Assembly: GCA_001724265.1 (NCBI GenBank) | Contig: MEDY01000352.1 | Coordinates: forward strand, 1 to 38,906 | From: Rhizaria sp. SCN 62-66 | Taxonomy: Eukaryota | Direction: 5' to 3' | DNA: 38,906 nt | Part shown: positions 13,002-38,268 of the stretch, piece after piece | Numbering within the stretch: the first letter of the stretch is position 1 | Layout: each line of letters opens with the position of its first letter | Translations under genes and position numbers: made by a program | The notes under the pieces: generated by a model | Told to the model about the DNA's origin: nothing | Seen by the model: the letters and a program-made list of their open reading frames with translations, nothing else | Database searches by the model: none

Positions 13002-14466
13002 ACCATCGACGCGGTCGTGTAACAAGTAAGTGTGCGGCACAATGCCTGTGCGCGCACACAGTGTAATGAAGCAGGCCATGTGCTAATTGTCGTGAGTTGG
13101 CTCCTGCGTAAAATGTGCATGCATGAGCTTCGTGCAATGCAGTGCTAAGGTTATGCATGCCAGTGGCGTATTTTTGCAAAGCGTGCGCAATTTTGAGCTG
13201 GAAGAAAGACACAAACGCCATCGTTGCCTGTATTGCGCTGTTCTCATCGCTAGTGCTGCGCATCTTAGAGGCGTGACAACGAACGTGGGTTTCCGAGGTC
13301 GATGTTTAAAATCAATTGACTCTTCGTATAACTCACACACTCGGCAAATCACACCAACTACAATTGCACCGGTTGCATTGCATCGTTTAACCCTCCAGCT
13401 GTCGGGACTGATGACAACGCTCATCGATTGATTGTTCTGTTCATTTAAAACCTTGGCCCACGTGTGCCGAATTCCCGAATCATCCCCGCCGCACCGCACT
13501 GCACTGCCCCGCGCCGCACTGCGCCCGTTCATAGGGCTCCCACCCCTGTGCGCGCAATGCGCTGCCCGCGTGTCTCTGTTCTTGTGCGCGCTTTTCGCGT
13601 CGCTTCTCCGTGCACTCAGTGTGCCGCTCGCGACACAAGCGATAGCACCGTGTTCTCGGTGCTCTGTGTTGTGTGTTTGGTGCGCTCTCGGTGGCGATAA
13701 CTGCGACAACGATGACGATAACGCCTGGAGGTTGCCGACTGCACCTAGCGTGCGCGAACGAGCATCACTGCCGTCGCGTCGTGAGTGTGCAAGGCAAAAT
13801 GCTCGGTGTTTCGTCGTCGTTAATGTGTTGTAGTTGTCAGCTTTTAAGATTGTCATCTTGCGTTCCGCCTTTTATTGTTCCTTTCTACCTTCCTCCTTGT
13901 CTAGCATAATAATCAGATATGATGAATTAAGCTTAATTCACCCCTTTATACCGTATGAACATCGAAGTATAGCACACGTATCAGTTAAGTGTTCTTGTGC
14001 CGATACATTCTATCATATTATATTTCACCGCAGAATACACTTAGCTTACTAGTTAATAAACGTTCTCTTTTGTATTGTTCGCGTGCGTCTGTGCAAAAGC
14101 ACGATCACTCACGATAGCACAAAGCAAGACAAAGCCAATCGGCTCATACTATTACATATGCAAAAATCTCAACAGGAGATGTCTGATACGTATCTCCGTC
14201 ATAAAACGTATCTCCGTCATAATTACAATAGTAGCTCAAAGTAACATGATGTCTAAGTCAGCACTTACATTCGTCAGTAAAACAGAAGTGAAACCGCGCA
14301 CTCACTCGAAACGTTGGCTGGCCAGTGGCTCGACTAGCGCGTCTATGCCCTCACAATGCTCTCATAACTCTCAATGCCGGTTCTCAGGGCTCTGAGAGCT
14401 CTGAGTGGGTGCGTTTGAGGTTCGAGGCGTGCGATATCGGAGAGATAGAGAGCTTGGATTGCTTGT

Positions 14467-20872: not shown

Positions 20873-22045
20873 ACAGAACATGTGACATGTATCCCAATAA
20901 TGAGCACAACAATGTACTAACAACGCACTTGCTACTCCTGAATATACTGCGGATGCGAGTGCAGCATTCGTGCCAGTGTGATTGCCACTGCCTTGTCTGT
21001 GTTTGTGCTTGGGGTGGAGTTGAGAAAGACAACGCGTGTCGTGTGTTCCCGAGTGTGCTGCGAGCTGTGACCTGATTTAACTGCGATGGCGCACTTGGTA
21101 GCGGATCCGAGACGTGGACGTGGGAATTTACTTTATTACTACTACTGGAAAGTACCTCTGCGCTTCCCGCAGCAGAGGGAAATGTATTTTGACAAGAAAA
21201 GGAAATCATATGTTGTATTAGCTACACAAAGAAAAAGAAGTAACAATAACAAAATATATGTGTGTATGTGTTGTCCCCCGCCATGAAGGGAGGCTGCGAA
21301 AGATTCGTTTGTTGTAACGATATTTGTTTATTTTAGTATAATCTACCTGCTTAATGTTTTGTTTTTTGTTTTTTACTGTCCCGATATATTTTTAAAAAGT
21401 ACTCTTGCTCGTATTGTCGACGCATGTGAGCACCTCGACCGCTATGTCTGTCGAAAGTGATGTGAATTGATGAATCGAGATGGGGCAGAGAAGAACTTTT
21501 GTTGCGCCTTATCGGTCCTTAGGAGGACCACTGGTTGTTCTAATAACTAATAGAAATACAAAACTCTATACTTTTCAAGCACATCAACATACCCAAGTTT
21601 TTATTTCCTCGTCTTGAATCCTCTTATGCATATCCTCGTGCAAAGTGCCGAACGCAGTGTGGAGCAGCAGTCACTGCAGCAGACCCGACTGTGCGCACTT
21701 TTTGTGGTGCGGCCGGGGGACTGCTGGGCTGAGCCGAACTAGCGAGGCAGAGCTCGTCAGGATAAAACTTATCTGGAGCTTTGTAATTTAGTCACCTTTT
21801 ATAATTTGCGCTGTATTATTCTATATGTTGCTCGCACACGCGAGTCACTTTAGGAAGCCTGCCTAGCTGTTCCGAAAAGCGAACTCACCACACCCTTCGT
21901 CCAAGCCCTTCTTGTTCAGACGCTCTCGGTTTTGCGCGGCCCGCACTGTGGCGCTTTCTCACAAACCACACAACTCACATCTTCATTTCTTGCGCTCATT
22001 TGCTCCCCGACTTGCTTTTCAGAGTCTCGTTTACTCGCACTTCTC

Positions 22046-25000
22046 ATGCAGAACGAGGCGTCCGCGAGCGCTGCCCCGGCCCGGGGTCCTCGCACCGCAC
22101 AGATGCACCGCTGTGTCTACAAGCACTACGTGGACCAGCCCGTGGCGACTGCGGCTGCGACCCAGGCCACGCAGCTCCCGCAGCAGAGCGCCGCACAGGC
22201 CGTGCTGGCAAACTCGCGCATTGCGCGCATCCAGTTCGAGATGATGAAGGACACGGACATCACCAAGCTGTCGCACCTCGAGATCGTCCACCGGTCCTTT
22301 TACGAGGTCAACCGCCAGGAGCCTATGCCCTGGGGCGTGCTCGACCGCCGTCTTGGCACTTCCTCCAAGGAAGCCAACTGTCAGACGTGCCTCAAGCCTC
22401 TGGCCGACTGTATCGGTCACTTCGGCCACGTGACTCTTGACCTCCCAGTCTTCCACATCGGCTACGTCAAGGAGATCCAGCGCGTTCTCCAGGCCGTGTG
22501 CAAGCGCTGCTCGCGCATCCTGCTGCCCGAGTCGTTCCGCGAGTACTACCTCTCGCGCATGGCGACGGGCGACCGCCGCCACCGGTCCGCCGTGAACCGC
22601 GAGGAGATCACCGAGCTCACTAAGCGCGCCAAGCTCTGCTCGCACTGCGGCGCGCGCAACGGGCAGATCAAGAAGATGCCCGGCATGCTCAAGTTCATCC
22701 ATGACCTGCGCGAGAAGGAGACTAAGTCTGCGCGCGACGAGCGTGCGTCACGCGAGAACACGCTCAAGGAGGCCGCGCGGCTGCGGCGCAAGGCGCGTGC
22801 CCGTGGCGAGACGGTCGACGACGCGTGGTATGACGAGCAGCAGCATGTCGGCACGGTGCAGACGACGGAGCGCGTGACCAACTTCGGCTACGGCCCGCGC
22901 ACGGGCACGGTGGCGCCCGAGACGTGGCGCGACGCGTTCGTTGAGTCGTTTTCCACGGCCGTTAAGCACAACTCGGCCATCGGTGACTACATCGATAAGG
23001 CGCTGCTCGAGGTGTCGCCGCTGTACGCACTCAAGCTCTTTGCGCAGATTCCCGACGAGGACTGCTACCTGCTGAACCTGGACCCGCAGCTGGGCCGCCC
23101 GGAGGACATGATCGTCACGCACCTCATCGTGCCGCCCGTCTGCATCCGCCCTTCAGTCACCATGGGTCCCTCGGGCTCCAACGAGGACGACCTCACGGTC
23201 AAGCTGGGTGATATTATCTACATCAACTCGTTCATCCGCTCCTGCTTCCAGAAGGGCATGCCCACCTCGGTCATCGTCGAGAACTGGGACTTTCTGCAGC
23301 AGCAAGTCGCCATGCTGGTCAATTCCGATCTCCCGGGCTTCAACAAGGCCGCCATCGCGTCCAAGCCCATCCGCGCGCTCACACAGCGTCTCAAGGGCAA
23401 GCAGGGCCGTTTCCGCGGTAACCTCTCCGGCAAGCGCGTCGACTTCTCCTCGCGTACCGTCATTTCCCCCGATCCGAACCTGCGCATCGACGAAGTCGGC
23501 GTGCCCCAACGCATCGCCAAGATCCTCACGTTCCCCGAGCGCGTGTTCGCGCACAACATCGAGCAGCTGCGCCAGGCCATCATCAACGGGCCTGACGTGC
23601 ACCCCGGCGCCAACATCGTCGAGTTCCGCAACGGGATGAAGATCTTCCTTAAGTTCGCGGACCGGCACAAGATCGCCGCCATGGTTGGCGAGGGCGATAC
23701 GGTCGAGCGCCACTTGCGCAACGGCGATATCTGTCTCTTCAACCGCCAGCCGTCGCTGCACCGCATGTCGATCATGGCGCACCGTGCGCGCGTGCTGCGC
23801 TGGCGCACGTTCCGCTTTAACGAGTGCGTGTGCACGCCCTACAACGCCGATTTCGACGGTGATGAGATGAACCTGCACTTGCCGCAGACGATGGAGGCGC
23901 GCGCCGAGGCCGAGTCTCTGATGGGCGTGCTGCACAACCTCGTTACACCGCGTAACGGCGAGCCGCTGGTCGCTGCCACGCAAGATTTCATCACGTCTGC
24001 GTTTCTCATCACCAGCAAGGACCGGTTCTTTTCGCGCGCGAAGCTCTGCCACGTTGTGGCCGGCATGGGCGACGCCAACGAGACGGTGCTGCTGCCCGTG
24101 CCCGCGATCCTCAAGCCGCAGCAGCTGTGGACGGGCAAGCAGGCCTTTTCGCTCCTGCTCAAGCCCAACAACGACCCCGCGCTGCACTGGCCGCTGGTGA
24201 CTGTGGAGCTCAAGGCGCGCAACAACAAGAAGGCACACCCGCTGGACCCCGGAGACGGCTACGTTGTGCTGCGCAACTCGGAGCTCATTTGCGGCTCGAT
24301 CGACAAGGACGCGCTCGGCGGGTCTAAGAAGGGTATGTTCTACCAGCTCATCCGCGGGCCGCGCGGGCCGGAGACTGCGGCACGCTTTCTCAACAGGCTC
24401 GCGAAGTGCTCCTCGCGCTTCATCGGCTCACAGGGCTTCTCGATCGGCATCGACGATGTGACACCGTCGCTCAAGCTGCAGGGTCACAAGCGCGCGCTGG
24501 TCGAGACGGGCTACGAGAACTGCCAGGCCAACATCGCAAAGTACCACGCCGGCCAGCTCGCGCTGCGCCCCGGTTGCGATGAGCTCCAGACGCTCGAGTC
24601 GATGCTGCTGGGTGAGCTCTCGGCCATCCGTGAAGACGCAGGCTCGGCGTGCTTTAAGGAGCTCAACCTGCTGTACAACTCGCCCCTCATCATGGCCATC
24701 TCCGGCTCGAAGGGCTCCAAGATCAACATCTCACAGATGACTGCGTGCGTCGGCCAACAGGCCGTCAGCGGCTCGCGCATCCCAGAGGGCTTCCACCAGC
24801 GCACGCTGCCGCATTTCCCCAAGTTCTCGCGCGATCCCGAGGCCAAGGGCTTCGTGGAGAACTCGTTCTTCACGGGCCTCACCGCCACCGAGTTCTTCTT
24901 CCACACCATGGGTGGCCGCGAAGGTCTCGTCGATACCGCCGTCAAGACGGCCGAGACGGGCTACATGCAGCGCCGTCTCGTCAAGGCCATGGAGGACCTG

Positions 25001-27598
25001 TGCGTGCAGTACAACGGCTCGGTGCAGACGTCGGAACGCAATATCGTGCAGTTCCGCTACGGTGACGACGGCCTCGACCCCGTACTCATGGCTTACGGCG
25101 CCATGCCGGTCAACTTTCCGCTCTACTGGGAGCAGATCCGTGCCGCTGTCAACGCGCACACGCGCAACGTCGCCGACGGCACTGCCTTTAGCGCTGCGGC
25201 GGCCGCCGCCGCTGCCGCACCTGTCGCCCGCGCCGCCGCCGCTGCCGCGCCCGCCGCGTCGAACGCCAAGGGCAACCGCCGCGACAACAAGAAGGACAAG
25301 GCCTCCGCCGCCGCCGCCGCCTCTGCCGCCGCTGCCGCTGCCGCGGCCTCTGCTGCCTCTGCCGGCAGCGCTGACGGGTCCGACCCCAAGACGTTCGTGT
25401 CTGACCTGCTCAAGTCGCTGCTGACGACCGCAGGCGGGTACAAGCAACTCGGCGAGCTGACCGACTATGTCGACATCGCGGCGCAGCTGGCCGCCGCGCA
25501 GGCCGCCGAGCACGCGGCCGCCGCCAAGCCCGTGCTCGCCGCCGCCGCTGCGGTGTCTTCCGCGGGCGGCGTCACCGTCAAGCTCGAGCCCGGCTCCGCG
25601 GCGGCCGCCGTCGCCGCTGCCGCCGCCGCCGCGCCCGTGGCCGCGGGAGGCAGCACGGGCTGCGTGAGCGAGGCTGAGGTGGCCTCCGCGGCCGACACCG
25701 CGCGCGCCGTGACCGCGGACGACTTCGAGCCGCTGTCGCCCGCGCAGATCGCCAGCGCCGTGCGCGTGTTCCTCGAGTCGCCCTGGGTCGTGGGCAACTG
25801 CACCGGCAAGTTCCTCGAAGGTCTGGTCGAGTTCATGGACAGAGAAGTGCTGTCGATGTGCCAGCTGTACGACCACGTGGGACTATGGTACGCGCCGCCG
25901 CTCAAGCGCGACGGCACGCCTCTGGTCAAGGCCGAGACGCTGTCCCCCGACGACGCCGCCTCTGCGCATACCGGTGGCGCGGTGAGCAAGACGGCGCTGC
26001 CGCACGACTCGGCGCTCAGACTGGTGCGGCAGACGATGCCGGTACTCAAGTCGCACCTCAACATCTTCCTCAACGGCTGCCAGTTCAAGTACGCGCGGTC
26101 GTGCATTGAGCCCGGATCCACGGTCGGCGCTGTCGGTGCGCAGTCGATTGGTGAGCCGGCGACGCAGATGACCCTCAAGACGTTCCACTTCGCTGGTGTC
26201 GCGTCGATGAACATCACGCTTGGTGTGCCGCGTATTAAGGAGATTATCAACGCCAGCAAGAAGATCAACACGCCCATCATCACGGCGCCGCTCGAATGCA
26301 GCACCGACGTCAAGACGGGCCGCATCGTCAAGGGCCGCATCGAGACGACGCGACTGGGGCAGATCGCGGAGAAGATCGAGGCCGTGTTCCAGTCTGGCCA
26401 GGCCTTTATCCGCGTCGTGCTGGACCCTCGTGTGATCGAGAGTCTGCAGCTCAACATCACCATCAGCAAGGTTGTAACGGCAATTTCAACGGCCAAGAAG
26501 CTCAAGCTCAAGGAGTGCGTCAAGCCGGCGGGCCCCATGACACTTCACGTGACCGCGCCCCCTTCGACGCGCGGGTCGAACCCGATGCATGTGCTGCAGA
26601 ACCTCAAGCACGCCGTGGCCGAGATCGTCGTCGAGGGCATCCCGACCGTGTCGCGCGCCGTCATTAACGACGACGGCAGCGGCAAGTACCATCTCCTCGT
26701 CGAAGGCTACGACATGCGCTCCGTCATGGGCACGCTCGGCGTGCGCGGCCGCGAAGTGACGTCGAACCACATCATGGAAGTGTGGAAAGTGCTCGGTATC
26801 GAAGCCGCGCGCACGACCATTATGCGCGAGATTAACACGACGATGGAGTCGCACGGCCTTAACGTCGACCCGCGTCACGTGGCGCTGCTCGCCGACACCA
26901 TGACGTGCCGCGGTGAAGTGCTGGGTATCACGCGCTTCGGCATCGCGAAGATGAAGGAGTCGGTGCTCATGCTCGCTTCGTTCGAGAAGACCGCCGACCA
27001 CCTGTTCGAGGCTGCGCTGCGCGGCGCATGCGACGACATCAGCGGCGTCTCTGACTGCATCATCATGGGCGTGCCTATGCCCGTCGGCACCGGTCTCTTT
27101 AACCTCATCTCTAAGTCCCAGCCTTCATCGCTGCCGAACATCGAGGAGCACAACGCGGCCGCCAAGCGCCAGAGCAAGGCCGCTAAGGCCGGCAAGGGTG
27201 CCGCGTCCTCCTCGGCCGCTTCTGGTGTCGCCGCCGCCGCTGCCGCCGCGCGCGCGGGCGCCGGCGCCGCGATGAGCGACGGCGAGGACGAGGAGCGCAT
27301 CGACCTCAGCGCGCTCGAGGCCCTCTCTGCCTCGGCCTCTGCGCCGAGCGGCTCTCGTCCCGCCGCGCGTGCCAGCGCTGGCGCGGGCGCGGGTGCGGGT
27401 GCGTCTGACAAGCGGCAGTCGCTCGCGGGCGCGAAGCCGCTGACGGGCCCGCTGGCGCAGCTGCTGCCCGCACAAGCCTCGCCCGGCAACTCGGGCATCG
27501 TCGGCCGCGTCGTGGAGCGCATCAAGCCCGCGCGCAACGACCCGCTGGCGTCGCGCGCGCCGTTACTGAGCCACTTCTCGGCCGCCGCAACCGCTTGA
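22046..27598 (+). CDS. POLR3A: DNA-directed RNA polymerase III largest subunit (RPC1)
   Basis: Zn site CQTC...CIGHFGH, RLKGKQGRFRGNLSGKRVDFSSRTVISPDP, catalytic YNADFDGDEMN (NADFDGD at 23843-23863), trigger-loop TQMTLKTFHFAG, and the Pol III-type GEVLGITRFGIAKMKESVLMLASFEKT. There is no heptad CTD. The first in-frame ATG is at 22046. Confidence 0.96.
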   Translation: MQNEASASAAPARGPRTAQMHRCVYKHYVDQPVATAAATQATQLPQQSAAQAVLANSRIARIQFEMMKDTDITKLSHLEIVHRSFYEVNRQEPMPWGVLDRRLGTSSKEANCQTCLKPLADCIGHFGHVTLDLPVFHIGYVKEIQRVLQAVCKRCSRILLPESFREYYLSRMATGDRRHRSAVNREEITELTKRAKLCSHCGARNGQIKKMPGMLKFIHDLREKETKSARDERASRENTLKEAARLRRKARARGETVDDAWYDEQQHVGTVQTTERVTNFGYGPRTGTVAPETWRDAFVESFSTAVKHNSAIGDYIDKALLEVSPLYALKLFAQIPDEDCYLLNLDPQLGRPEDMIVTHLIVPPVCIRPSVTMGPSGSNEDDLTVKLGDIIYINSFIRSCFQKGMPTSVIVENWDFLQQQVAMLVNSDLPGFNKAAIASKPIRALTQRLKGKQGRFRGNLSGKRVDFSSRTVISPDPNLRIDEVGVPQRIAKILTFPERVFAHNIEQLRQAIINGPDVHPGANIVEFRNGMKIFLKFADRHKIAAMVGEGDTVERHLRNGDICLFNRQPSLHRMSIMAHRARVLRWRTFRFNECVCTPYNADFDGDEMNLHLPQTMEARAEAESLMGVLHNLVTPRNGEPLVAATQDFITSAFLITSKDRFFSRAKLCHVVAGMGDANETVLLPVPAILKPQQLWTGKQAFSLLLKPNNDPALHWPLVTVELKARNNKKAHPLDPGDGYVVLRNSELICGSIDKDALGGSKKGMFYQLIRGPRGPETAARFLNRLAKCSSRFIGSQGFSIGIDDVTPSLKLQGHKRALVETGYENCQANIAKYHAGQLALRPGCDELQTLESMLLGELSAIREDAGSACFKELNLLYNSPLIMAISGSKGSKINISQMTACVGQQAVSGSRIPEGFHQRTLPHFPKFSRDPEAKGFVENSFFTGLTATEFFFHTMGGREGLVDTAVKTAETGYMQRRLVKAMEDLCVQYNGSVQTSERNIVQFRYGDDGLDPVLMAYGAMPVNFPLYWEQIRAAVNAHTRNVADGTAFSAAAAAAAAAPVARAAAAAAPAASNAKGNRRDNKKDKASAAAAASAAAAAAAASAASAGSADGSDPKTFVSDLLKSLLTTAGGYKQLGELTDYVDIAAQLAAAQAAEHAAAAKPVLAAAAAVSSAGGVTVKLEPGSAAAAVAAAAAAAPVAAGGSTGCVSEAEVASAADTARAVTADDFEPLSPAQIASAVRVFLESPWVVGNCTGKFLEGLVEFMDREVLSMCQLYDHVGLWYAPPLKRDGTPLVKAETLSPDDAASAHTGGAVSKTALPHDSALRLVRQTMPVLKSHLNIFLNGCQFKYARSCIEPGSTVGAVGAQSIGEPATQMTLKTFHFAGVASMNITLGVPRIKEIINASKKINTPIITAPLECSTDVKTGRIVKGRIETTRLGQIAEKIEAVFQSGQAFIRVVLDPRVIESLQLNITISKVVTAISTAKKLKLKECVKPAGPMTLHVTAPPSTRGSNPMHVLQNLKHAVAEIVVEGIPTVSRAVINDDGSGKYHLLVEGYDMRSVMGTLGVRGREVTSNHIMEVWKVLGIEAARTTIMREINTTMESHGLNVDPRHVALLADTMTCRGEVLGITRFGIAKMKESVLMLASFEKTADHLFEAALRGACDDISGVSDCIIMGVPMPVGTGLFNLISKSQPSSLPNIEEHNAAAKRQSKAAKAGKGAASSSAASGVAAAAAAARAGAGAAMSDGEDEERIDLSALEALSASASAPSGSRPAARASAGAGAGAGASDKRQSLAGAKPLTGPLAQLLPAQASPGNSGIVGRVVERIKPARNDPLASRAPLLSHFSAAATA

Positions 27599-28805
27599 GC
27601 ACGAAGTGGCTGTGTTGAAACGTGCTGAGGATGTCCTAACAAACGAAACGAGAAAACAACATGCAAAAAAGTAACCACTTTTTTTAGGAAACACGTTTGA
27701 AAACTCAAGCAATAACAAACGACAAAACTCGAATAATCAATTAAAATGTACATGTACTGTACATACAATGTCAACCATCTGATACTAGTATGTGTGATAG
27801 CTTTGAACAATCGAAGAACATTTATTTTATCGACTAAGCTGGCCATTAGATGTTGTTTTAATACAATTTCGTAATTATTATTAATCTATGGAACATTTGC
27901 TGCAATTGATTACGTCATCATATTTTATGTGTACCGTTTTCTCTGTCAGTTGCTTATTCCACTTTGTGGCTGGCCCGCGCAATGATACATGTACGTTGCT
28001 CGTGATGAGTGTTTGACCCAGTGCTATCGTATTTATCAGTGTTTGGATTGTATTTATTTTTTGAATGATAAGCTTCTGATACCTCGAAATAATTAATAGC
28101 TTACCAATATTAGTAGGAATAAAACAAACATCAATGTTCAAGTGCATTTGCTGGTTGGTCCCCAATCACGTACAACACCATTTATTGTTTTATGTTGTAT
28201 TTTTGCAATTTCGAAGGTAGCGTACAATTTAAATAAGTATCACAATTCTTGTTTCATTAATGTTGTTATTCTTATCTGCAATTTATACCAGCAGGTTCTC
28301 ATCCGCTGTAGAGAGTCATTTTCGGTGCTCATTATTCTGACTAACTCGCTGCCTCGCGCGATGCCGCCATCTTCAACCGTCCCATGCCTCGAGAGGCGCT
28401 GTCGCTGGTCTGGTACCTGCTCTGGACACGACTGAAGACGCCCCAAACTCAAACAATAGCGGCAGGTCCGGACACAACAAACGCACAAACGTAAAAGAGG
28501 TTCGCATCCCATGGCATCAGTGCGGGCACCGATCTGCTCTCCGCGCTCGCCACACTGGCGCCGCTGTACACGCGCGCTCCGCTGCTCTTGGCCGCGCCGA
28601 CAATGTCGGTCGCCAACACGGCGACGGCGACGTCTGCGCTGCCCGCCGCCGCCGCAGTCTCTGCCGCGGCCGCCGCGACGTGACCACGCGTGCCGCCGCA
28701 CTGCCTGTCGCGCAAAAAGAAAGCACTGTGTCGCCAGTCTGCGGCAATCGTCGGGTGCACGTAGTGCAACTCGAAAAAAACACAACGCACCGAGAAAGTC
28801 GTGTT

Positions 28806-31800
28806 TTAATCACGAAGCTGGATGTGGAACACCGGCCTTTGCGAGCTAAACTTATTTGATTTGGAAGGCGTCATCTTAACCGTTAAATGAGGGGACGGAA
28901 AAATAACAACAACCTCAGGACGAACTTGCACATGAAAACCCGATCCATTGTTGTACACGGTCTTCCACCCTTGCTGAGTCACCTGTTCATTCAGCGCCGT
29001 GATCACCGCTGCTTCAATCGCATTAATAAGGCTCCACACGCCGGGAAGATCAAATTTGTGCGATTTACTGATTGTGGCTTGAATAAGAGAAATGCGAGGA
29101 CTGTTAAAAGGGCCGTTAGGAAACTCCACCAAGATCGTATCGAAGTTTGGAAAGTTGGGGGCGTCAGGATCGAAGCGCCAGGCCAAGGCATTAAACCTAG
29201 GGGCCGTAGCGACGTCCCGCTTCTGCGCTGCGTCGGAACGAATCTTAACAATCTGAACTGCAATACGATTCGCAAGAGCTTCGAGCGTGATACCAGCCGC
29301 AAAAGAAGTAACACATTGAGAAATCTCGCCCTCCGCCAAAGCGACGCGCACATGCGTCATGTCGAGTTTTAAGCCAGTGGGTTTGCCTCGGTAATCTAAA
29401 AGATCATACACCTTCTTGTCCTGGCGGGTAAGAAAACTATTCTCATACAGAAATCCGTAAGCAGATGAGGCTAGCTTAACCAGTGCAGAGTGCTGCATGC
29501 CGATTGTTCCCTTTGCGGCGGCGTGGCGAAGAAGCAAATCAAATGCCCCAGGGCTGGCCTCTTGAAAACCACATAAAATATGATTAAGTGTAGCAATTGG
29601 CGTAGTGAGAGTAGTCCTTAAACGTTTCCGAATGTCGTTGGAGTCGTGATTTTTCGGGTACTGCTTATACTTAGTGAGCCACTCATCAAGAGTCCAGACA
29701 CATGGAGGTTCGGTGTGAGCCCGCAGCACATTTGTGACAATAGCGTGGGAGAGATTCATCAAACCAGGCCCATTGTACAGCAAATTTGTCAACTCATCTG
29801 TGGTCTTCGCATCGTTTAACTGATCTAGAGCGTTTTTGTCCAGAGATCGAATCGCAGTCGAGAGGTATTTACGGGCGTCGAATTGACTTGCCTGGCCGTA
29901 CGCAGCTTGTAAAGCGGCACGAAAATTACCCTTAACCAACGTGACTACTTCATCAACCTTAGGCGAGTAAAACTCGTTCAGCAGTTTAAACCCCTGTTTA
30001 ATCTCTGCGTCTTCCCAGGCGTAAGACCACAAAGAAACAACACCAGGGTTCTTTCGGGCGGAAGTAAGCTTCGGAGAAATAGCGCTATAATGCTTGACAT
30101 TAGGAGATGTTGCAATAAGACTGGTTGCCTTAAAGCCATCATTAAACAAAGGCTCCGCGTCAGCCTCGTCAGGGTCAAACAGGTAGACGACGTACTTGTC
30201 ACGGAATAGCGCACCTTCGACGTCACTGATACTCATCGCCCGAACAGGGTTCTCGTGTTTCGCAGAGTAGCATAAGATTTGATGATTAGCTCGCCCAGAA
30301 TGACAAATTACATCCATGCCAAGCTCAAAACGTGCGATGTACCAGATCAGATTCAGCATAACAGACTTGCCTGTGCCAGGCGGGCCGCGCAGTAAAAACG
30401 TGGTTCCAATCCCCGGATCGCCTACGTTGAGCGCTTGCAGATGAGTTGTCAGGATATTGTAAATGCCATTGTGTGACTTGCGCAGCAGTAAGCGTTGCAT
30501 AGGCGCCTCGGTTTTAAGACCTTTGCCGGAAAAGGGAAAATATGCACCTTTAGGGGCGTCCAGAACGTGAAAGTATTCAAATGATGAGTCATACGACGCC
30601 TTAGATTGGAACAATTCAGAGTTAGCATCATCATCCCACAGGTTTAATGCATGATCAACATCTGTCTGACACTCTGTCACCACTCGTTCAAATTTCTTGC
30701 GATGCAGGTAGGCATCCGCAAACGCTAGCCGCCTGGTTAACTCCTCTGTCCCGGCCCCGATGTCAGTGTCAGTGCCACCTGAGCCGGGGGCTGAGGCCTC
30801 GGCGGCTGTGGCGACGGCCTGCGACGGCAACAGCGCGGTGCTCTTCGACCCAAGCTGCACCGGCAGAGCCAGTGAACTCGCCTGAGTCTGACGTGCAAGG
30901 ATTGTTCTGTAGGTTTGCTCCGTGATCGCGGCAAAGTACTTTGCTTCGTTGTAAGCTTGGGTGAGTTTTGCGATTTTGGCGGCAGCTCGTGAAGCCCGGG
31001 CTCCTGCACGTCAGGGTGCGAGAAAGAATAAAAGAGAACAATGTGAGGAAAAAGGACAGTAAAATTGATGAAAACGAGTATAACAAGTCAAGGACGAAGC
31101 AAAAAAGTGAAAATAAGCAGTGAGACGTGGATTTTGCGGTGACGTACGCCGAAGAACAGTCAATGACGCCGTGAGCTTTTCATTGGCCTTTGTCACTTGA
31201 GCGTCAGCATCTGCCTACACTTTTGAGGCTACTGCAAACTTAGTCTCGAGAAGCCTCAAGCTTTGTTCAACCTAGCTTTCATTTTCAGACAATTCAGGGC
31301 GTTTTGAGTCAACTTTCTGCACATCGATAACCGACTAGTAGAATCGCGCAACCGTATCATCGTGATAGAGTTGCTCAACCGTATCCGCCATGATTTCAAC
31401 TTGATCACCTTCAGTTGCAACGCACACAACAGCATCGTGATCAACCGCGTGATCTTTATCAACTTTTGTCACAGCTTCCTTCACCTTTTCCAGTTGATAT
31501 GCCTTCCAAGAAACATGGTTCGGTGTCAGCTTCAAAAAAGCTGCGTGAAGCTCCCTTCCGACTTGGTACTCGGCAAAGTTCGCATTAGCGAGACGAACCT
31601 TGGCGAGCTTAACAACAGCCTCGTGGTTGATAATATCAGTCACCATAAGTTGTTCCTCGGCATTCTTAAGGCGGAATGTCACGTTTGCGCAATTCTCATT
31701 GTTAGCCGGAAGAGTCATCGTGAGATCGTGATCATCCTGAGCACACTTTAACTCAGTTTTTGCCTTCTTCACACCGCGGTCAGCCTTAACGAGATCACAA

Positions 31801-32387
31801 CACATTTTGAGATTGAAAATAGCTACCCGCAACTTGGTATCGGCGTCGCCACGCAAAACGAGAAGTTGCTCGAGGTTAGCTTCAGCAGCTGCCACCTCTT
31901 CGTACCTTTTGTATAATTGAGCTTCAGCCTCGATCTGACCATCACTCTTCGTTGGCGGTGTATACTCGGCGAGGAACTGCTCCAGAGGCGGTTGACTAAG
32001 ATCAAACTCTGCTCGAATCCACTGCTCGTAACAATCCTTCGCAGCCCTGACTTGGTCCAATGTAGTCTGAGCAGTTATCACGTTAGCGTGAGTCCGGAAT
32101 CGTTCGTCGCCGGAAGAAATCGCATCGCCAGAAGCAGCATTTAAGAGATCTAGAACATCCTTATTCTCAAGTTCATCCGGATCAATAAGCAGCGCGCTGA
32201 TGTTGCTGCCGTCTAGAGAGAGAAAGAGCGAGAACGGGAGAAGATGGAGAGAAAGAGAGGGGGAGGGAGAGAGAGGGCGAGGGAGAGAGAGAGGGAGAGA
32301 GCGGCAATAAGAAGGTTATATGACAAAGACGAACGCTCAATTGAAGGCAAGCTTACCTGTAAATTGGAACATGAACTGTAACAACAT
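28806..32387 (-). CDS. Crinkler/RHS-type effector-like protein: helical N-terminal region + P-loop NTPase + restriction-endonuclease-fold domain; exons ~32387-32357 (tentative), 32212-31148, 31003-28806; three in-frame TAG
   Basis: Walker A GPPGTGKS (30386-30363), Walker B-like VVYLFDP, the CR/RHS-type IATSP....Y motif, and C-terminal P..PNFPNFD...LIQATISKSH typical of CR-REase domains. Introns 32356-32213 (CAG|GTAAG...TAG) and 31147-31004 (C|GTACGT...CTGAC..CAG|GA) keep the frame. The 5' end is uncertain. Confidence 0.75.
32215..32300. repeat. GA/CT-rich microsatellite-like tract (polypyrimidine tract of a minus-strand intron)
   Basis: AGAGAGAGAAAGAGCGAG...GGGAGAGAGAGAGGGAGAGA abuts the acceptor at 32213-32214. 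Confidence 0.7.
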
Positions 32388-33466
32388 GTAGTGACATTGT
32401 GAAGGTGCGTACCGTTGGCGCTGCGGGATTGTACGTTCAGTTTGGTGAACAGAGCAGAGAGATCCGCATATGACTGATGTAAGTTTTGAAGCTGCTGCGC
32501 GGAGCCGCTCTGAGGAGTGGAGTAGCGCAAAGCGCGATGGGTCTAATCTTGAAGTTGCTCATTGAGGGCATGTGAGGACGATGGCGACACTCTAACAAGT
32601 TCAGTAGAAGCTGCGGATGTAGTGTTCGCAGCGTGAGCGTTATTGTTAATGCCCTTATTTGCGTTGCGGGCTTCGAGGCTTTGGCGCATGGTGGCGCTGG
32701 AAGCAGATTGGTCGTCCATGCAAGACAAAGAGAAGACTGATGGGTCGATGCAGGAGAGTGTTGAATGTACAAATCGAGATGTGAATCAAATTTCTCTTCT
32801 GTAGCGCGACAAATCAAACATTATAAGGCCAGTAACAAGAGGAATTGTGAAAATGTGAGGATGCCCGAGAAGAACGAGGGGACTCATTGCATTGCCAGTT
32901 GTGAATAGAGGAGGCTCAAGCGGAGAAGCTCTAAATGACTTTACGTAGAAAACAATAAGTCAGTCATGTACCATTACATAACGCAGCAGAGGAAGATGAT
33001 GTCAACATCGGTGTCCTATCACAGCGGTAGGTCTTATGGATCAGATTGACTGAATGCTTCTCGAAAGTCTGCGATGTTCGAAGTTAAGCCGTCAAGTCAG
33101 GACAGGCGGATTTTTCGGAACCAAAATGGCTAGAGTCTTTATTGAGCTTAAGAACAGCCGAGTGTAATAAATAACGAGTTATACTGGTCTCTGATGACTT
33201 TGTAACGGGAGCAAACCACGCATGTACATTAGCCGTTCGATTGGACGGATCGCGCGACACTGTAGGGCTGCGAAGGGACATTGTGGCCTGGCCTGGGTTC
33301 TTTACACTGGACAACAAGTCAGGGACACGGAGAGACACAACAAGAGAGAGCCGTGGTAAGATACGTGCTACGTGAAGACATTACGATGTGAAGCGCGAGA
33401 GTATAGAGATGCCACAAGCCACCACGAGACGACGTGGCGTTGAGGAAATGAAAAGCTCAGTTAAGA

Positions 33467-33554
33467 GTGTTCAGTCGCGTCAGGAAAGTTTTTAATCATT
33501 CATCCGTGTTTAACAGACACGGATCAGGAACTTGGATGTTGGATCATCATTATA
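33467..33554 (-). ncRNA. Box C/D snoRNA family A, copy 2 (snR48/U60-like guide)
   Basis: Box C ATGATGA at 33550-33544, D' CTGA, internal TCCGTGT/ACACGGA hairpin, box D CTGA at 33474-33471. It differs from copy 1 at one position, whereas the flanks are unrelated. It lies in intron 33621-~33268. Confidence 0.8.
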
Positions 33555-33813
33555 AGATATTTCGTCGAGTCATCTTCGCAGCAAAAGGTATGGTTGCGGG
33601 TGCGTGAAACATGAAACATACCTGAAACAAAGCACGCTGCTACAGTCATGAGAGACACAACATGCGAACGCCAGGTGCCGCCATGCAAAGAGAGATAGCG
33701 GGCGTAGTGACTGTGCCAATTAACAAAATGAGAACGAGCCAGTCAAGAAGTGAGTGGATAACCGACAGTAGAAGGAGATGCAACGAGCACAACAGAGAGC
33801 TTGTTTTGTTTGC

Positions 33814-33919
33814 GATGTTGAATCAGAAAATCGGTTAGAAAAAAAGTGTAATCAAGCACGCTTTTGAATTCACGCACATATCAGCAACACGGACCAATAA
33901 TTTTCATCATTTAAACATC
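33814..33919 (-). ncRNA. Box C/D snoRNA family B, copy 2 (U18/snR18-like)
   Basis: Box C at 33910-33904. The guide TTGGTCCGTGTT sits just before D' CTGA (33884-33881) and is complementary to the conserved LSU rRNA AACACGGACCAA. Box D at 33826-33823; terminal stem GATGTT/AACATC. Confidence 0.85.
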
Positions 33920-34126
33920 ACAACTAAAGAGCGAAGGAAAACAGTAGTCGTAGACATACCTTATGAACACGGAACTACGCGTCGACACCACACATCGAGA
34001 GAAGAGCACAAGAGCTAAACAAGCGCAAATATGACGCGACAGAAAAGAAAGCAATCGCAGAGACAATGATGTGAGCGCAGGCTTGTGTTAACGTTGGTGC
34101 GAGAGAAGCAAGTGACTAAAAGTACC

Positions 34127-34214
34127 ATGTTCAGTCGCGTCAGGAAAGTTTATAATCATTCATCCGTGTTTAACAGACACGGATCAGGAACTTGGATGTT
34201 GGATCATCATTATA
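34127..34214 (-). ncRNA. Box C/D snoRNA family A, copy 1 (snR48/U60-like guide)
   Basis: Box C at 34210-34204, D' CTGA at 34187-34184, box D at 34134-34131. The D guide AACTTTCCTGACGC is near-complementary to the conserved LSU GUGUCAGAAAAGUU. It lies in intron 34270-33975. Confidence 0.8.
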
Positions 34215-34285
34215 GTGTAAATGTGGTAGAAAGGACGGAAACGCATGATGTGTGCGTGTGTGTTACATACCCAGCAGCTGGATTC

Positions 34286-34859
34286 TCACTTCTTCTTGAC
34301 AACAACAACCTTGGTGTTGCTGGCAGACTCGTAGACGGAGTTGGGAGCCTTGCGGGTGAAGGAGAACTCACCAAACTGCGAGGCCAGCCAACACGGTGGA
34401 AAGCGACAAAAGAATAAAGCGATTGAGATGGTGAGTGACATGTAGTGAATCCGAAGTTGCCAGCAAACAAGCGGGTTTAGGTTTTGGGTGGTGGGTTGTT
34501 AAGGTAGTCAGAAGGTAGGTTTAAAATAAGTGTAATCAAGCACGCTTTTGAATTCACGCACATATCATCAACACGGACCAATAATTATCATCATGTGTAA
34601 CATTCGAAAAAGATCGTAGTTTCATAGGAGGCGATATACATACCTTAAAGCCGACGTGCTGCTCGGTAACTTCGAGCGGCTCGTACTTCTTTCCGTTGTG
34701 GACGGCGAAGCGGATGCCGATGAACTCGGGGAGGATCATTGACGCGCGATTGGTGATGTTGATGGGCGCCTTCTGGGGCTCATTCTTGCGAACCATGGCG
34801 CGCACGACACGCACAATCGATGGGTGGCAGAAGGGGCCCTTCCAAATCGAGCGAACCAT
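34286..34859 (-). CDS. rps19: Nuclear-encoded mitochondrial ribosomal protein uS19m, 101 aa; exons 34859-34644 and 34375-34286
   Basis: MVRSIWKGPF...RASMILPEFIGIRFAVHNGK...HVGFK|FGEFSFTRK is the bacterial/mitochondrial S19 signature. Phase-0 intron AAG|GTATGT...CGCAG|TTT; stop TGA. There is also a 5'-UTR acceptor (CTAAC..CAG at 34865-34864). Confidence 0.92.
34504..34598 (-). ncRNA. Box C/D snoRNA family B, copy 1 (U18/snR18-like)
   Basis: Box C at 34594-34588, the same TTGGTCCGTGTT guide followed by a degenerate D' (ATGA), and box D CTGA at 34511-34508. It lies inside the coding intron of rps19. Confidence 0.8.
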
Positions 34860-35396: not shown

Positions 35397-36557
35397 ATGT
35401 CCAAGGGTGTGTTTGCTCTCTTGCTCGTCGCCATCGCCTGCGCGTCTGGTGCTACGTTCGAGGTACGTGCTAATCTTGTCCTGCTTCCTCTTCCCGTCAT
35501 CTTCCGTCCCATGTCTTGCTTTTCATCCCTCCACCCCATCACCTCACCCCTGCTCTTTGCTTCTCTACTCTCTGCTTCCTTTGCTCCTTGCTTTGTTGTT
35601 GCGTAGAATGAGGTGAACATTCGCAACGACCCCTACCTTCAGCGCGTGGTAGAGGAGGCCGTTGAGATGGGCGAGAATTCGATTCTCGACCTCGCGATGC
35701 GCGACACGGCCACCGCCCACCTCGAGGCTCCCCACGAGATCGCTTCGTCTTTGCTCGCCGTCTCGAGCGAGATTCTCGGCTCCCCCGTCCCGCGCGCCCT
35801 CCGCGGCGTGCCCCGCCCTTCTGCAGCCAAGGCCGCCGCCCCCGCGACGCAGGGCGTGTCGTTCGTGTCTGTCGACGAGTACGCCGAGTTCGAGGCCCTG
35901 CTGGGCTCGAGCGAGGAGGAGCGCCTCATCGCGCGCAAGAAGGCCGAGCTGGCCGCCGACGCCGCCGAGAACGCCGACCTGCTGAACCAGTTCGAGGACC
36001 TTTCGGCCACGGTCGACCGCTTCCAGGGTGAGCTGGCCCGCGAGGAGTCGATGTCGTTCGCCGACGCCTCCGTCTCCGCCGAGGAGGCCCTCGAGGCCGA
36101 GTCCGAGGCCGAGGCCGAGTCCGAGGCCGACGCCGAGGTGCAGCAGGAGTTTGAGGCCGACATCGAGGCCGAGCTGGACGCCGACGCCGAGTTCGACCTC
36201 ACGGCCGACGTCGATGACCGCATTGTGGCCCGCGCCGCGCGCGACGCCGCGCGCAAGACGGCCGCCGCCGTGCAGGCCGAGATCGAGGCCGAGTACGACC
36301 TCACCGCGTTCCTCGAGCTCGATGCCTCCGTCTCCGCGGGCGCCGACTCTGGCGCCGCCGCACTGACCGCCGCGCTGGCGGACCTGGCCGCGCCCGCGAT
36401 GTAGAGTGAGGCGCTGGAGCCCACACTGTCGGAGGAGGCCGCCGCCGAGGCCGAGGGGCACGACCTGCCCACGTTGTCGTTCCTGCTGACCGAGGAGGAG
36501 CTCACGTCGCAGCTCCACGCGCTGCAGAAGGACTTTGCCAACACCAACGCCAACTAA
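35397..36557 (+). CDS. Secreted acidic Glu/Asp/Ala-rich protein; exons 35397-35462 and 35607-36557; in-frame TAG at 36402-36404
   Basis: Signal peptide MSKGVFALLLVAIACASGA on exon 1 and a phase-0 intron GTACGT...TAG (35463-35606). GC3-rich coding pattern and amino-acid composition persist for 50 codons past the TAG up to TAA 36555-36557. It ends at 36404 if TAG is a stop. Confidence 0.8.
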
Positions 36558-36984: not shown

Positions 36985-38268
36985 TTACATGTCAGCACCG
37001 GCGGCACGGAGCTCGCTGAGACCGCTCTGGAGCGTGCGGACGCGGCGGGCGAGGTCCTCAGCACCGGGGATGACCTGGTTCTTGGCCTTGATCATCTGCG
37101 TCTCGAACTGCATGAGGTCGTCCATCTCCTTCTGCGCCATCTTGAGGTCGTTCTGGAGACGGAACTCCTTGAGCTTGTGGACAGAGTGGCGGCGCTGGTG
37201 GCGCAGCTGGTGCAGCGCGTTCTTCATGATCTTCTCGTTCTTGCGAGTCTGCGCGAGCTGGTTCTTGATGCGGCGCACGGCGAGGACGGCGTTCTTGTTC
37301 CAGACCTTGTAGGTCTCGATCTTGGCCGTGGCGTCCTTGATCTTGGCGCTGATCTCGTCCCAGAGCAGGATGTCGTGCTCGTAGTTGGGGTCGTTGGTCG
37401 CCTCGTCCTCACCGAGCAACAGGCCGTCGGGGATGGTGCTCTCGTCAGCGCCGGGGACGGCGCCGGGGGCGTGCTTGAGGTTGACGAGCGAGCCGGGGAG
37501 GGCCTTGTCGGTGGGAAGCTCGCCGAGACCGAGGGCGTACTCCTCGTGAATGTCGCGCTTCTTCTTCTTCTTGGCGGCCGCAGAGTCGGCCTCGGCGGTG
37601 GAAGCGAAGAGGGCGTCAACGTCGACCTCAGCAAACGCCTCGGAGGACGCGTCGACCGCGGTCTCAGCCTCGAGACCGGCGAGGGCCTCCTGCTCAACGT
37701 CGACCTCGGCATCAGCGTCGGCGTCGACGTCAGCAAGAGCCTCGAGGGTGATCTCGGACGAAGCCTCAGCCTCAGCCTCAGCGTCGGCGTCAACGCCGGC
37801 AGCGTTGGCCAGCTCGATGTCGACCTCGCTGTCCATCTCTGCGTCGATCTCCACCAGCATGGGCGACGGAATCTCCGCGTTCACATCAAATGCCACCTGA
37901 GAGGCGCACCGACAGTCAAGGAAACGCCCGGGGGGCAAGGGGCAAGGGGACGAAGGGAAGGGGCGAGAGCAGGGTTACAAGGTGGTGTGGGGAGCAACAA
38001 AAGGTGAGCTACAGAAGAAGAAGGCAACGCTATCCAAACACAAGATGACATTTGATCGATAGAATATGTGTCAGGGACTACATTAAATTTGATCACAGAC
38101 GCGAGCAACGGTGTGGGCGACCGCTGTAGACGTCGGGAAGGAACCTCCAACTGGACTCTTCGATGTGGGGAGTGAGGGGAACAAAAGGGGGGCAAATGTG
38201 AGGAAAAGACGTACCGAGGTGGCGGCAAATGCGACCACTGCCACGAGAATGGCAAGGATAGTCCGCAT
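36985..38268 (-). CDS. Secreted protein with acidic DADAEAE-rich N-region and basic coiled-coil C-region; exons 38268-38215 and 37896-36985
   Basis: Signal peptide MRTILAILVAVVAFAATS on exon 1 and a phase-0 intron GTACGT...TCAG (38214-37897). GC3-rich ORF with a KKKKKR tract and a heptad-like C-terminal half; stop TAA. Confidence 0.8.

Follow-up and report, generated by a model that had tools for sequence, protein, structure and literature searches.

This analysis concerns a gene for a coiled-coil P-loop nucleoside triphosphatase (NTPase) on the minus strand of contig MEDY01000352.1, whose 38,906 nucleotides (nt) were analysed as one stretch (hereafter the window). The original prediction, made from the letters of the sequence, held that three in-frame TAG triplets and a frame-preserving splice join two apparently separate open reading frames (ORFs) into one gene, and it offered as one possibility that the TAGs act as a switch limiting the expression of a toxic NTPase-nuclease. 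The three triplets are present exactly as quoted: the minus-strand translation of the flagged stretch is ARFY*SVIDVQKVDSKRPELSENES*VEQSLRLLETKFAVASKV*ADADAQVTKANEKLTASLTVLR, and all three stops are TAG. The proposed donor C/GTACGT (31147) and acceptor CAG/GA (31004) are also in the sequence, and removal of the intron between them rebuilds a CGA codon and keeps the NTPase frame. Together with an upstream exon, the joined coding sequence (CDS) is 3570 nt long, a multiple of three, and consists of 1189 codons followed by a terminal TAA. The two ORFs are one gene, a single 1189-codon frame with homologues of the same coil and NTPase layout. We consider it likely that this organism reads UAG as sense, probably as Gln or Glu, with UAA and UGA as its stops; an ordinary sense codon TAG, the explanation that the evidence favours, had no place in the earlier account. 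The features of the gene are listed below.

join(32719..32413, 32212..31148, 31003..28806), span 28806..32719, minus strand: whole gene, 3570-nt CDS
32413..32719, minus strand: exon 1, start ATG at 32719
32543..32545, minus strand: fourth TAG (codon 59), overlooked in the original prediction
32213..32412, minus strand: intron 1, 200 nt, donor CG/GTACGC, pyrimidine-rich, acceptor CTCTAG/AC
31148..32212, minus strand: exon 2, 355 codons of helical/coiled-coil sequence, holding the three flagged TAGs
31335..31337, minus strand: TAG codon 395 (ARFY*SVID)
31272..31274, minus strand: TAG codon 416 (SENES*VEQS)
31215..31217, minus strand: TAG codon 435 (ASKV*ADAD)
31004..31147, minus strand: intron 2 (proposed), 144 nt, donor C/GTACGT, T-rich, CTGAC near the 3' end, acceptor CAG/GA
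28806..31003, minus strand: exon 3, end of the coil, P-loop NTPase and C-terminal domain; TAA at 28808-28806
30363..30386, minus strand: Walker A motif GPPGTGKS, codons 664-671
30188-30168, minus strand: Walker-B-like motif VYLFDPD

Gene structure and encoded protein

Four in-frame stop triplets interrupt the joined CDS, all of them TAG (codons 59, 395, 416, and 435), and none is TAA or TGA, whereas the two off-frames hold 15 TAG versus 135 TAA plus TGA. Within the coding frame TAG therefore occurs at background frequency and TAA and TGA are excluded. The genomic frame 31011..32315 (minus strand) runs for 435 codons without TAA or TGA. All four TAG sites have the same letters in DNA contigs of runs X2 and X4, which belong to two other studies, for which the differences listed between 27600 and 33600 are only those at 28229, 28823, 29688, 29878, 31566, 32375, and 32707. 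The TAG of codon 59 is also unchanged in X5 record 23 and X6 record 31, which are contigs of cDNA-labelled runs.

None of the sequencing runs listed as containing the window is recorded as RNA. Runs X5 and X6 come from one sample, and their RNA nature was guessed (they are listed as 'probably DNA'). Over exon 1 their contigs reach 32751 (X5) and 32683 (X6); other contigs end at 31363 (X5) and 31002 (X6), neither of them with a joint, and none lies over 31003-31362. Both contain the joint 32212^32413 (X5, side 184; X6, side 40), which skips 200 nt bounded by CT..AC on the plus strand, that is, GT..AG on the minus strand, and DNA contigs of X2 and X4 are continuous through the same interval. With the RNA status of both runs a guess, the skip is taken as spliced intron 1, and the contigs that carry the joint retain the UAG of codon 59. 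Exon 1 holds the only in-frame ATGs before that TAG; the next in-frame ATG stands at about codon 236, and exon 2 has no ATG in its first ∼130 codons. The frame of exon 1 is not decided by stop counts (frame 0, one; frame 1, one; frame 2, six). The CT-rich tract of intron 1 (32223-32423) showed a depth of 717 in X2 versus ∼7 elsewhere, made up of short unrelated low-complexity contigs; this peak is a mapping artefact and carries no copy-number signal.

The second intron is likely spliced, judging from the reading frame, the removal of a TGA, base composition, and analogy with the other introns of the organism. It holds the sole TGA of its genomic frame (31013-31011), and its T-rich composition sets it apart from the coil sequence on either side. 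No run shows a joint at this intron. Its donor word GTACGT and its length of 144 nt are those of the homology-supported intron 35463-35606 in an unrelated gene on the plus strand, described below. The original proposal of a 144-nt intron thus appears sound, since it fits the introns of this organism, whose donors are GTACGC (cDNA-supported) and GTACGT (homology-supported). We rejected a longer intron, spanning about 31362-31004, as it has no GT at the donor position and the wrong phase, and no in-phase canonical donor upstream of the first flagged TAG is compatible with the contig 31363-31700. GTACG looks like the donor consensus of the organism: GTACGT begins two 144-nt pyrimidine-rich introns of unrelated genes and GTACGC begins intron 1. 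The equal length of the two 144-nt introns is a coincidence.

The original prediction regarded the clustering of three TAGs within about 41 codons as odd. It is only mildly unusual (P=0.013 for four TAGs placed uniformly over 1189 codons); restricted to the N-terminal 590 codons the value becomes P=0.047. One-step precursor codons of TAG are equally dense in the two halves of the gene (0.154 vs 0.155), which makes weaker constraint the more likely reason for the excess of TAGs in the coil, seen in the relatives too. The bases after the four TAGs (ACC, TCG, GTT, and GCA) form no common readthrough context. Four TAGs in one gene and the lack of a conserved downstream context do not agree with programmed readthrough, in which a gene usually has a single leaky stop with a conserved context or structure downstream.

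The protein has a coiled-coil N-terminal half, followed by a P-loop NTPase and a C-terminal domain. Eight database homologues have the same coil and NTPase layout, with 32-37% identity over alignment A1, and the best local segments shared with database relatives reach up to 48% identity; the GPPGTGKS and VYLFD(PD) columns are invariant or near-invariant in A1. By hmmscan, Pfam gave weak AAA_16 and nSTAND P-loop matches alone (E 0.005-0.26) and no match to RHSP (PF07999), RHS_N (PF20445), or Crinkler (PF20147) at E<=5; the C-terminal domain had no Pfam match. Among the neighbours of the protein in a language-model search are clusters with the names Crinkler and retrotransposon hot spot protein (scores 0.90-0.98). 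The AlphaFold model has a mean predicted local distance difference test score (pLDDT) of 56.7, with 70-88 in the NTPase core and mostly <50 in the C-terminal third (511-731). Foldseek matched it to NAIP5, AVAST5, NOD2, Cdc6, and CED-4 with a probability of 0.96-1.0 and template modelling (TM) scores of just 0.15-0.36; as modelled, residues ∼130-420 would resemble STAND/AAA+ NTPases at low TM. Of the earlier label NTPase-nuclease, the first half is borne out by the P-loop motifs, and the second half found no backing in Pfam or in a C-terminal model with pLDDT <50. The protein is called here a CR-like (Crinkler/RHS-type) coiled-coil P-loop NTPase, a name given without a match to a curated CR-family profile. 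The family is multi-copy, and the gene has a GC content of 0.49 and a GC content at third codon positions (GC3) of 0.51.

TAG codons in relatives and in unrelated genes

We scanned JGI metagenome contigs and obtained 11 loci (L001-L011). L004 duplicates L003 and L007 duplicates L006, and each pair was counted once; L011 was left out (weak match, E 3e-5) and L010 was used for its first TAG only. In L001-L009 the homologous region of the NTPase frame is broken by TAG alone, and seven distinct ORFs (L001, L002, L003, L005, L006, L008, and L009) together contain 27 in-frame TAGs. Five of these were set aside as splice-site or upstream sequence: L006:572, L008:913, and L009:605 each come after a run of pyrimidines and probably mark 3' splice sites, and L009:365 and L009:458 lie upstream of such a probable site. 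In the translated L003 and L006, two 'X' match no TAG (presumably ambiguous bases) and were left out of the counts. All four bases were found as the next base after the 27 TAGs. Alignments between paralogues cross TAGs and never TAA or TGA. Several TAGs stand within tightly aligned blocks (SPNVKHY*NVLPRINAIPKF, WANDHA*ELLF, and KLDKTS*..IAYAAAKA), and TAGs also fall in parts of the NTPase and C-terminal regions that align too well to leave room for an intron. Some TAG columns are common to diverged paralogues (L001+L002, L001+L005, L001+L003, and L006+L008+L009) that differ at 15-19% of nucleotides, and no frameshift separates paralogues over up to 945 aligned codons.

Neutral simulations used the substitution spectrum of each pair. 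For L003 vs L001 (945 aligned codons, 433 substitutions), 5.6 new TAG, 4.3 TAA, and 2.3 TGA were expected; 7 TAG were observed and neither TAA nor TGA, against 6.6 TAA plus TGA expected (P(no TAA/TGA)=0.0015). Six other pairs gave P from 0.03 to 0/2000 replicates. Open frames that are protected from TAA, TGA, and frameshifts, yet gain TAG at the neutral rate, carry the signature of a sense codon rather than of decay. With TAG alone in the gene and in its relatives, the earlier argument that random pseudogene decay would not produce such a pattern is upheld.

Two side observations concern these relatives. The database proteins P0001-P0008 begin or end at in-frame TAGs of their own contigs, and P0003 ends in ...WANDHA, exactly at the TAG of L003 and L004; gene calling under the standard code has thus broken the family into fragments. 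L010 1-3165 opens with some 360 nt of NTPase-family sequence, in which the shared HY*NV TAG is present, and goes on with 69% GC sequence and bacterial-looking ORFs (by eye membrane transporter-like, RidA-like, and amidohydrolase-like), and it is probably a chimeric assembly.

We also examined TAG in genes unrelated to the NTPase family. A GC-rich gene on the plus strand has the following features.

35397..36557, plus strand: GC-rich, secreted-type gene used as a test of the code, unrelated to the NTPase family; ends in TAA
35397-35462, plus strand: exon 1 (signal-peptide exon)
35463-35606, plus strand: intron, GTACGT..GCGTAG, 144 nt, supported by the N-terminus of the homologue
35607-36557, plus strand: exon 2
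36402..36404, plus strand: internal TAG, Glu opposite in P0009

The coding signature of this gene runs 50 codons past the TAG at 36402: the three codon positions have GC contents of 0.73/0.33/1.0 over 36444-36533, and this pattern collapses to 0.43/0.40/0.57 beyond the TAA at 36555. The homologue P0009 (330 aa) is identical at 193 of 315 positions (61%) and aligns gap-free across the TAG; after it, 35 of 46 aligned residues are identical (76%), and this is the best conserved part of the protein. The coding GC signature likewise collapses after the TAA at 36987. Beside the family member of L001 lies a GC-rich coiled-coil gene (L001 4260-5015, ending in TGA) with TAGs at 4497 and 4554 in the Q/E-rich context REQEAQL*EKDARLQEQEARHQTQMQ*QEARL, and its coding signature is unbroken. 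The signature evidence comes from manual inspection of defined genes only; automatic GC-signature scans for internal stops were discarded as noisy, with antisense frames of GC3-rich genes mimicking the signal.

The ten accepted genes of the window end in TGA (five) or TAA (five) and none in TAG, and neither TAA nor TGA occurs in frame in the 1189 codons of the flagged gene or the 6709 codons of eight host genes. The TAGs of gene 35397-36557 and of the L001 neighbour, together with the absence of TAG terminators, point to the organism rather than the NTPase family as the cause of the in-frame TAGs.

Close matches to the window come from metagenomes of bioreactors and wastewater. The remaining genes are long, have few introns, and are very rich in GC (GC3 0.78-0.92, GC 0.64-0.72); among them are genes for an ABCA-type transporter, an ankyrin/WW protein, SHMT, PP2A-B56, a protein of the RNA polymerase III largest-subunit type, and a HAD hydrolase, and two orphan genes. 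An Atlas search with the SHMT returned only broad clusters of eukaryotes. The polymerase gene (21932-27598) consists of one ORF of 1888 codons with long insertions rich in alanine, and its GCC/GCG-rich low-complexity repeats (family D1, 31 copies) recur in other host genes. At 33468-34594, repeat pairs of 87 nt (99% identity) and 72 nt (96%) stand 660-684 nt apart, which indicates a tandem duplication of ∼680 bp; the second of the two copies runs into the 3' end of a gene for a mitochondrial-type ribosomal protein S19 (34554-34859, minus strand; Pfam S19 E=2.4e-20). The window gave no Rfam match at gathering score.

Meaning of UAG and alternative explanations

The original prediction had suggested aligning paralogues at the TAGs as a check, and the residues found there are mixed. 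Opposite the 16 usable TAG columns of close relatives stand Q (5), E (4), K (3), R (3), W (2), H (2), and single others. Summed over these columns, none of which is hyperconserved, BLOSUM62 scores are 20.5 for Q, 14.0 for E, 7.0 for K, and -31.2 for Leu. The amino-acid test is weak because most of the opposite residues are one mutation away from TAG and the proteins are fast-evolving. On these alignments our best guess for UAG is Gln, with Glu second and Leu unlikely.

Under this interpretation the source would be an uncultured, GC-rich, intron-poor microbial eukaryote of bioreactor and wastewater metagenomes in whose nuclear code UAG stands for an amino acid, with Gln the likeliest and Glu the next. 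The flagged region would lie midway through an intact gene of three exons and 1189 codons from a fast-evolving, multi-copy coil and NTPase family. New TAGs would need only one mutation in codons such as CAG, GAG, AAG, and TGG and be tolerated in the weakly constrained coil, and housekeeping genes with GC3 near 0.9 would almost never use TAG. The decoding machinery would presumably consist of a tRNA with anticodon CUA and an eRF1 blind to UAG. If UAG is read as sense, an expression switch is unnecessary.

Several observations weigh against a sense UAG. The use of TAG is uneven, with 1 in the 6709 codons of the eight host genes versus 4 in 1190 in the flagged gene, an imbalance that would also fit decoding that is inefficient or ambiguous. 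Part of the contrast can be put down to codon bias (CAG:CAA is 186:25 in the host genes and 26:31 in the flagged gene). The terminator sample is small at ten genes, and two TAG-ended ORFs exist, both judged not to be genes: 13083-13856 (minus strand; 257 codons, GC3 0.54, no family match, Cys/Arg/His-rich) was considered non-coding, although it would be a TAG-terminated gene if real, and 35565-36518 (minus strand) is antisense to a real gene. The comparison with other runs leaves the TAG at 36402 outside its stretch, and ARAGORN found no tRNA gene in the window (0 genes). L001-L009 are just 32-46% identical to the window protein and may belong to other organisms. Finally, the ratio of nonsynonymous to synonymous substitution rates (dN/dS) is ∼0.35 for distant pairs and 0.66-1.07 for close pairs, and the latter values would fit dead genes; that reading of them fails because TAA, TGA, and frameshifts are cleanly absent. 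In these sequence comparisons the amino-acid sequence of the family appears weakly constrained or diversifying.

Three other explanations were weighed. UAG might be ambiguous or weakly suppressed, kept out of housekeeping genes and tolerated or exploited in the NTPase family, where it would lower the dose of full-length protein, as in the switch suggested originally. The skewed use of TAG, which rises to 8 in the 602 codons of L009, the densest relative, would agree with this, as would the concentration of TAGs in the weakly constrained coil and their mild clustering. New TAGs nevertheless arise at the neutral rate, the bases that follow them share no readthrough context, none of the ten window genes terminates with TAG, and a conserved gene outside the family has a TAG directly before its best conserved segment. 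No evidence was found for a switch on a toxic NTPase-nuclease, and TAGs are found family-wide, in an unrelated gene, and in the neighbour of a relative. We regard ambiguous or suppressed decoding as improbable. It is very unlikely, too, that the TAG stretch escapes translation through a larger intron or alternative splice that removes codons 395-435, or through a downstream start. Such an arrangement gains from the fact that intron 2 and the TAG cluster lie in no cDNA-labelled contig, the local exon structure being inferred, and loses from the 435-codon TAG-bearing frame without TAA or TGA, from the want of a suitable in-phase donor noted above, from the TAGs of relatives in NTPase and C-terminal blocks without room for an intron, and from the codon-59 TAG retained in cDNA-labelled contigs.

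The copies could also be pseudogenes of a repeat family under a TAG-biased mutation process (CAG to TAG or TGG to TAG, resembling repeat-induced point mutation), with shared TAGs spread by duplication of dead copies. The family is indeed multi-copy, its member in the window has a GC content of 0.49 against 0.64-0.72 in host genes, dN/dS is near 1 among close paralogues, and the residues that stand opposite TAG include Q and W. Yet E, K, L, and S also stand opposite TAG and need transversions, the transition/transversion ratio is just 0.8-1.2, and a transition process would also yield TAA from CAA and TGA from TGG. Paralogues diverged at 15-19% of nucleotides have neither of these stops and no frameshift in up to 945 codons, where about 6.6 TAA plus TGA were expected. 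Decay of a repeat family leaves the TAG of the conserved GC-rich gene 35397-36557 unexplained, and the NTPase gene is present in cDNA-labelled contigs with a spliced intron. We consider this explanation hardly credible.

A more far-reaching version of the sense-codon explanation, which we hold to be possible and rather doubtful, is that the lineage captured UAG very recently or partially and represents a living intermediate stage of stop reassignment, in which UAG density might set the dose of these possibly toxic proteins. UAG would then be decoded, near-absent from GC-rich housekeeping genes, and accruing at the neutral rate in the NTPase family of a previously unrecognised lineage that would recur in several wastewater-reactor studies over ∼10 years. 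Since the family and the housekeeping genes differ so strongly in how often they use TAG, the spread of a new sense codon could be studied here in a natural setting. In practice, standard gene callers split or truncate the genes of this organism at TAG, so annotations of wastewater metagenomes wrongly list the family and other TAG-bearing genes as pseudogenes or short ORFs.

Comparison with known systems

Trypanosome RHS arrays form a large P-loop family in which many copies contain in-frame stops of mixed types together with frameshifts. In contrast to those pseudogenes, the interruptions described here are TAG alone and the frames are intact. CR proteins combine a P-loop NTPase with a restriction endonuclease-type C-terminus (PMC5289972). 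As far as that account goes, the family of the window gene is like them in being a multi-copy, fast-evolving eukaryotic P-loop NTPase family, and unlike them in having no CR Pfam match, a coiled-coil N-terminus, and a C-terminal model with pLDDT <50.

The 38.9-kb multi-gene contig with 65-75% GC genes is, we assume, unlike a ciliate. Outside the ciliates, nuclear reassignment of UAG alone is described for the rhizarian exLh, Iotanema, and Scotinosphaera (PMC5304391, PMC11687900), and a literature search covering articles without their supplements returned no further non-ciliate UAG-only code beyond those three. UAG-only codes are further reported as Ser in Scotinosphaera, as Leu, Gln, and others in phyllopharyngean ciliates, and as Gln in Protocruzia tuzeti (PMC11687900). 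The present case resembles these in that UAG is decoupled from UAA; the organisms themselves are green algae or ciliates. In exLh (Sainouroidea, Rhizaria), UAG encodes Leu, and 384 in-frame UAGs were found in 71 genes (PMC5304391). The likeness to exLh is that of a non-ciliate protist recognised from contaminating or metagenomic sequence alone, with in-frame stops all UAG and terminators UAA and UGA. The difference lies in the amino acid, as Leu scores -31.2 versus +20.5 for Gln in our columns and stands opposite TAG in 1 of the 16.

The closest parallel in these sources is Iotanema spirale, where UAG encodes Gln, UAA and UGA are stops, UAG makes up ∼8% of Gln codons, and 348 of 730 contigs contain UAG (PMC5304391). 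As in I. spirale (the pattern of NCBI table 15), only UAG would be reassigned here, UAA or UGA ends the genes, and Gln is the best-scoring residue; UAG is also a minority codon, with 4 TAG beside 57 CAG plus CAA in the window gene. Unlike in I. spirale, GC3 is near 0.9, a single TAG was found in the 6709 host codons, and the choice between Gln and Glu is unsettled. New UAG-only cases serve to test ideas on how UAG becomes uncoupled from UAA. We concluded that the present case fits the known kind of UAG-only reassignment and, being no new kind of code, adds a GC-rich lineage to it.

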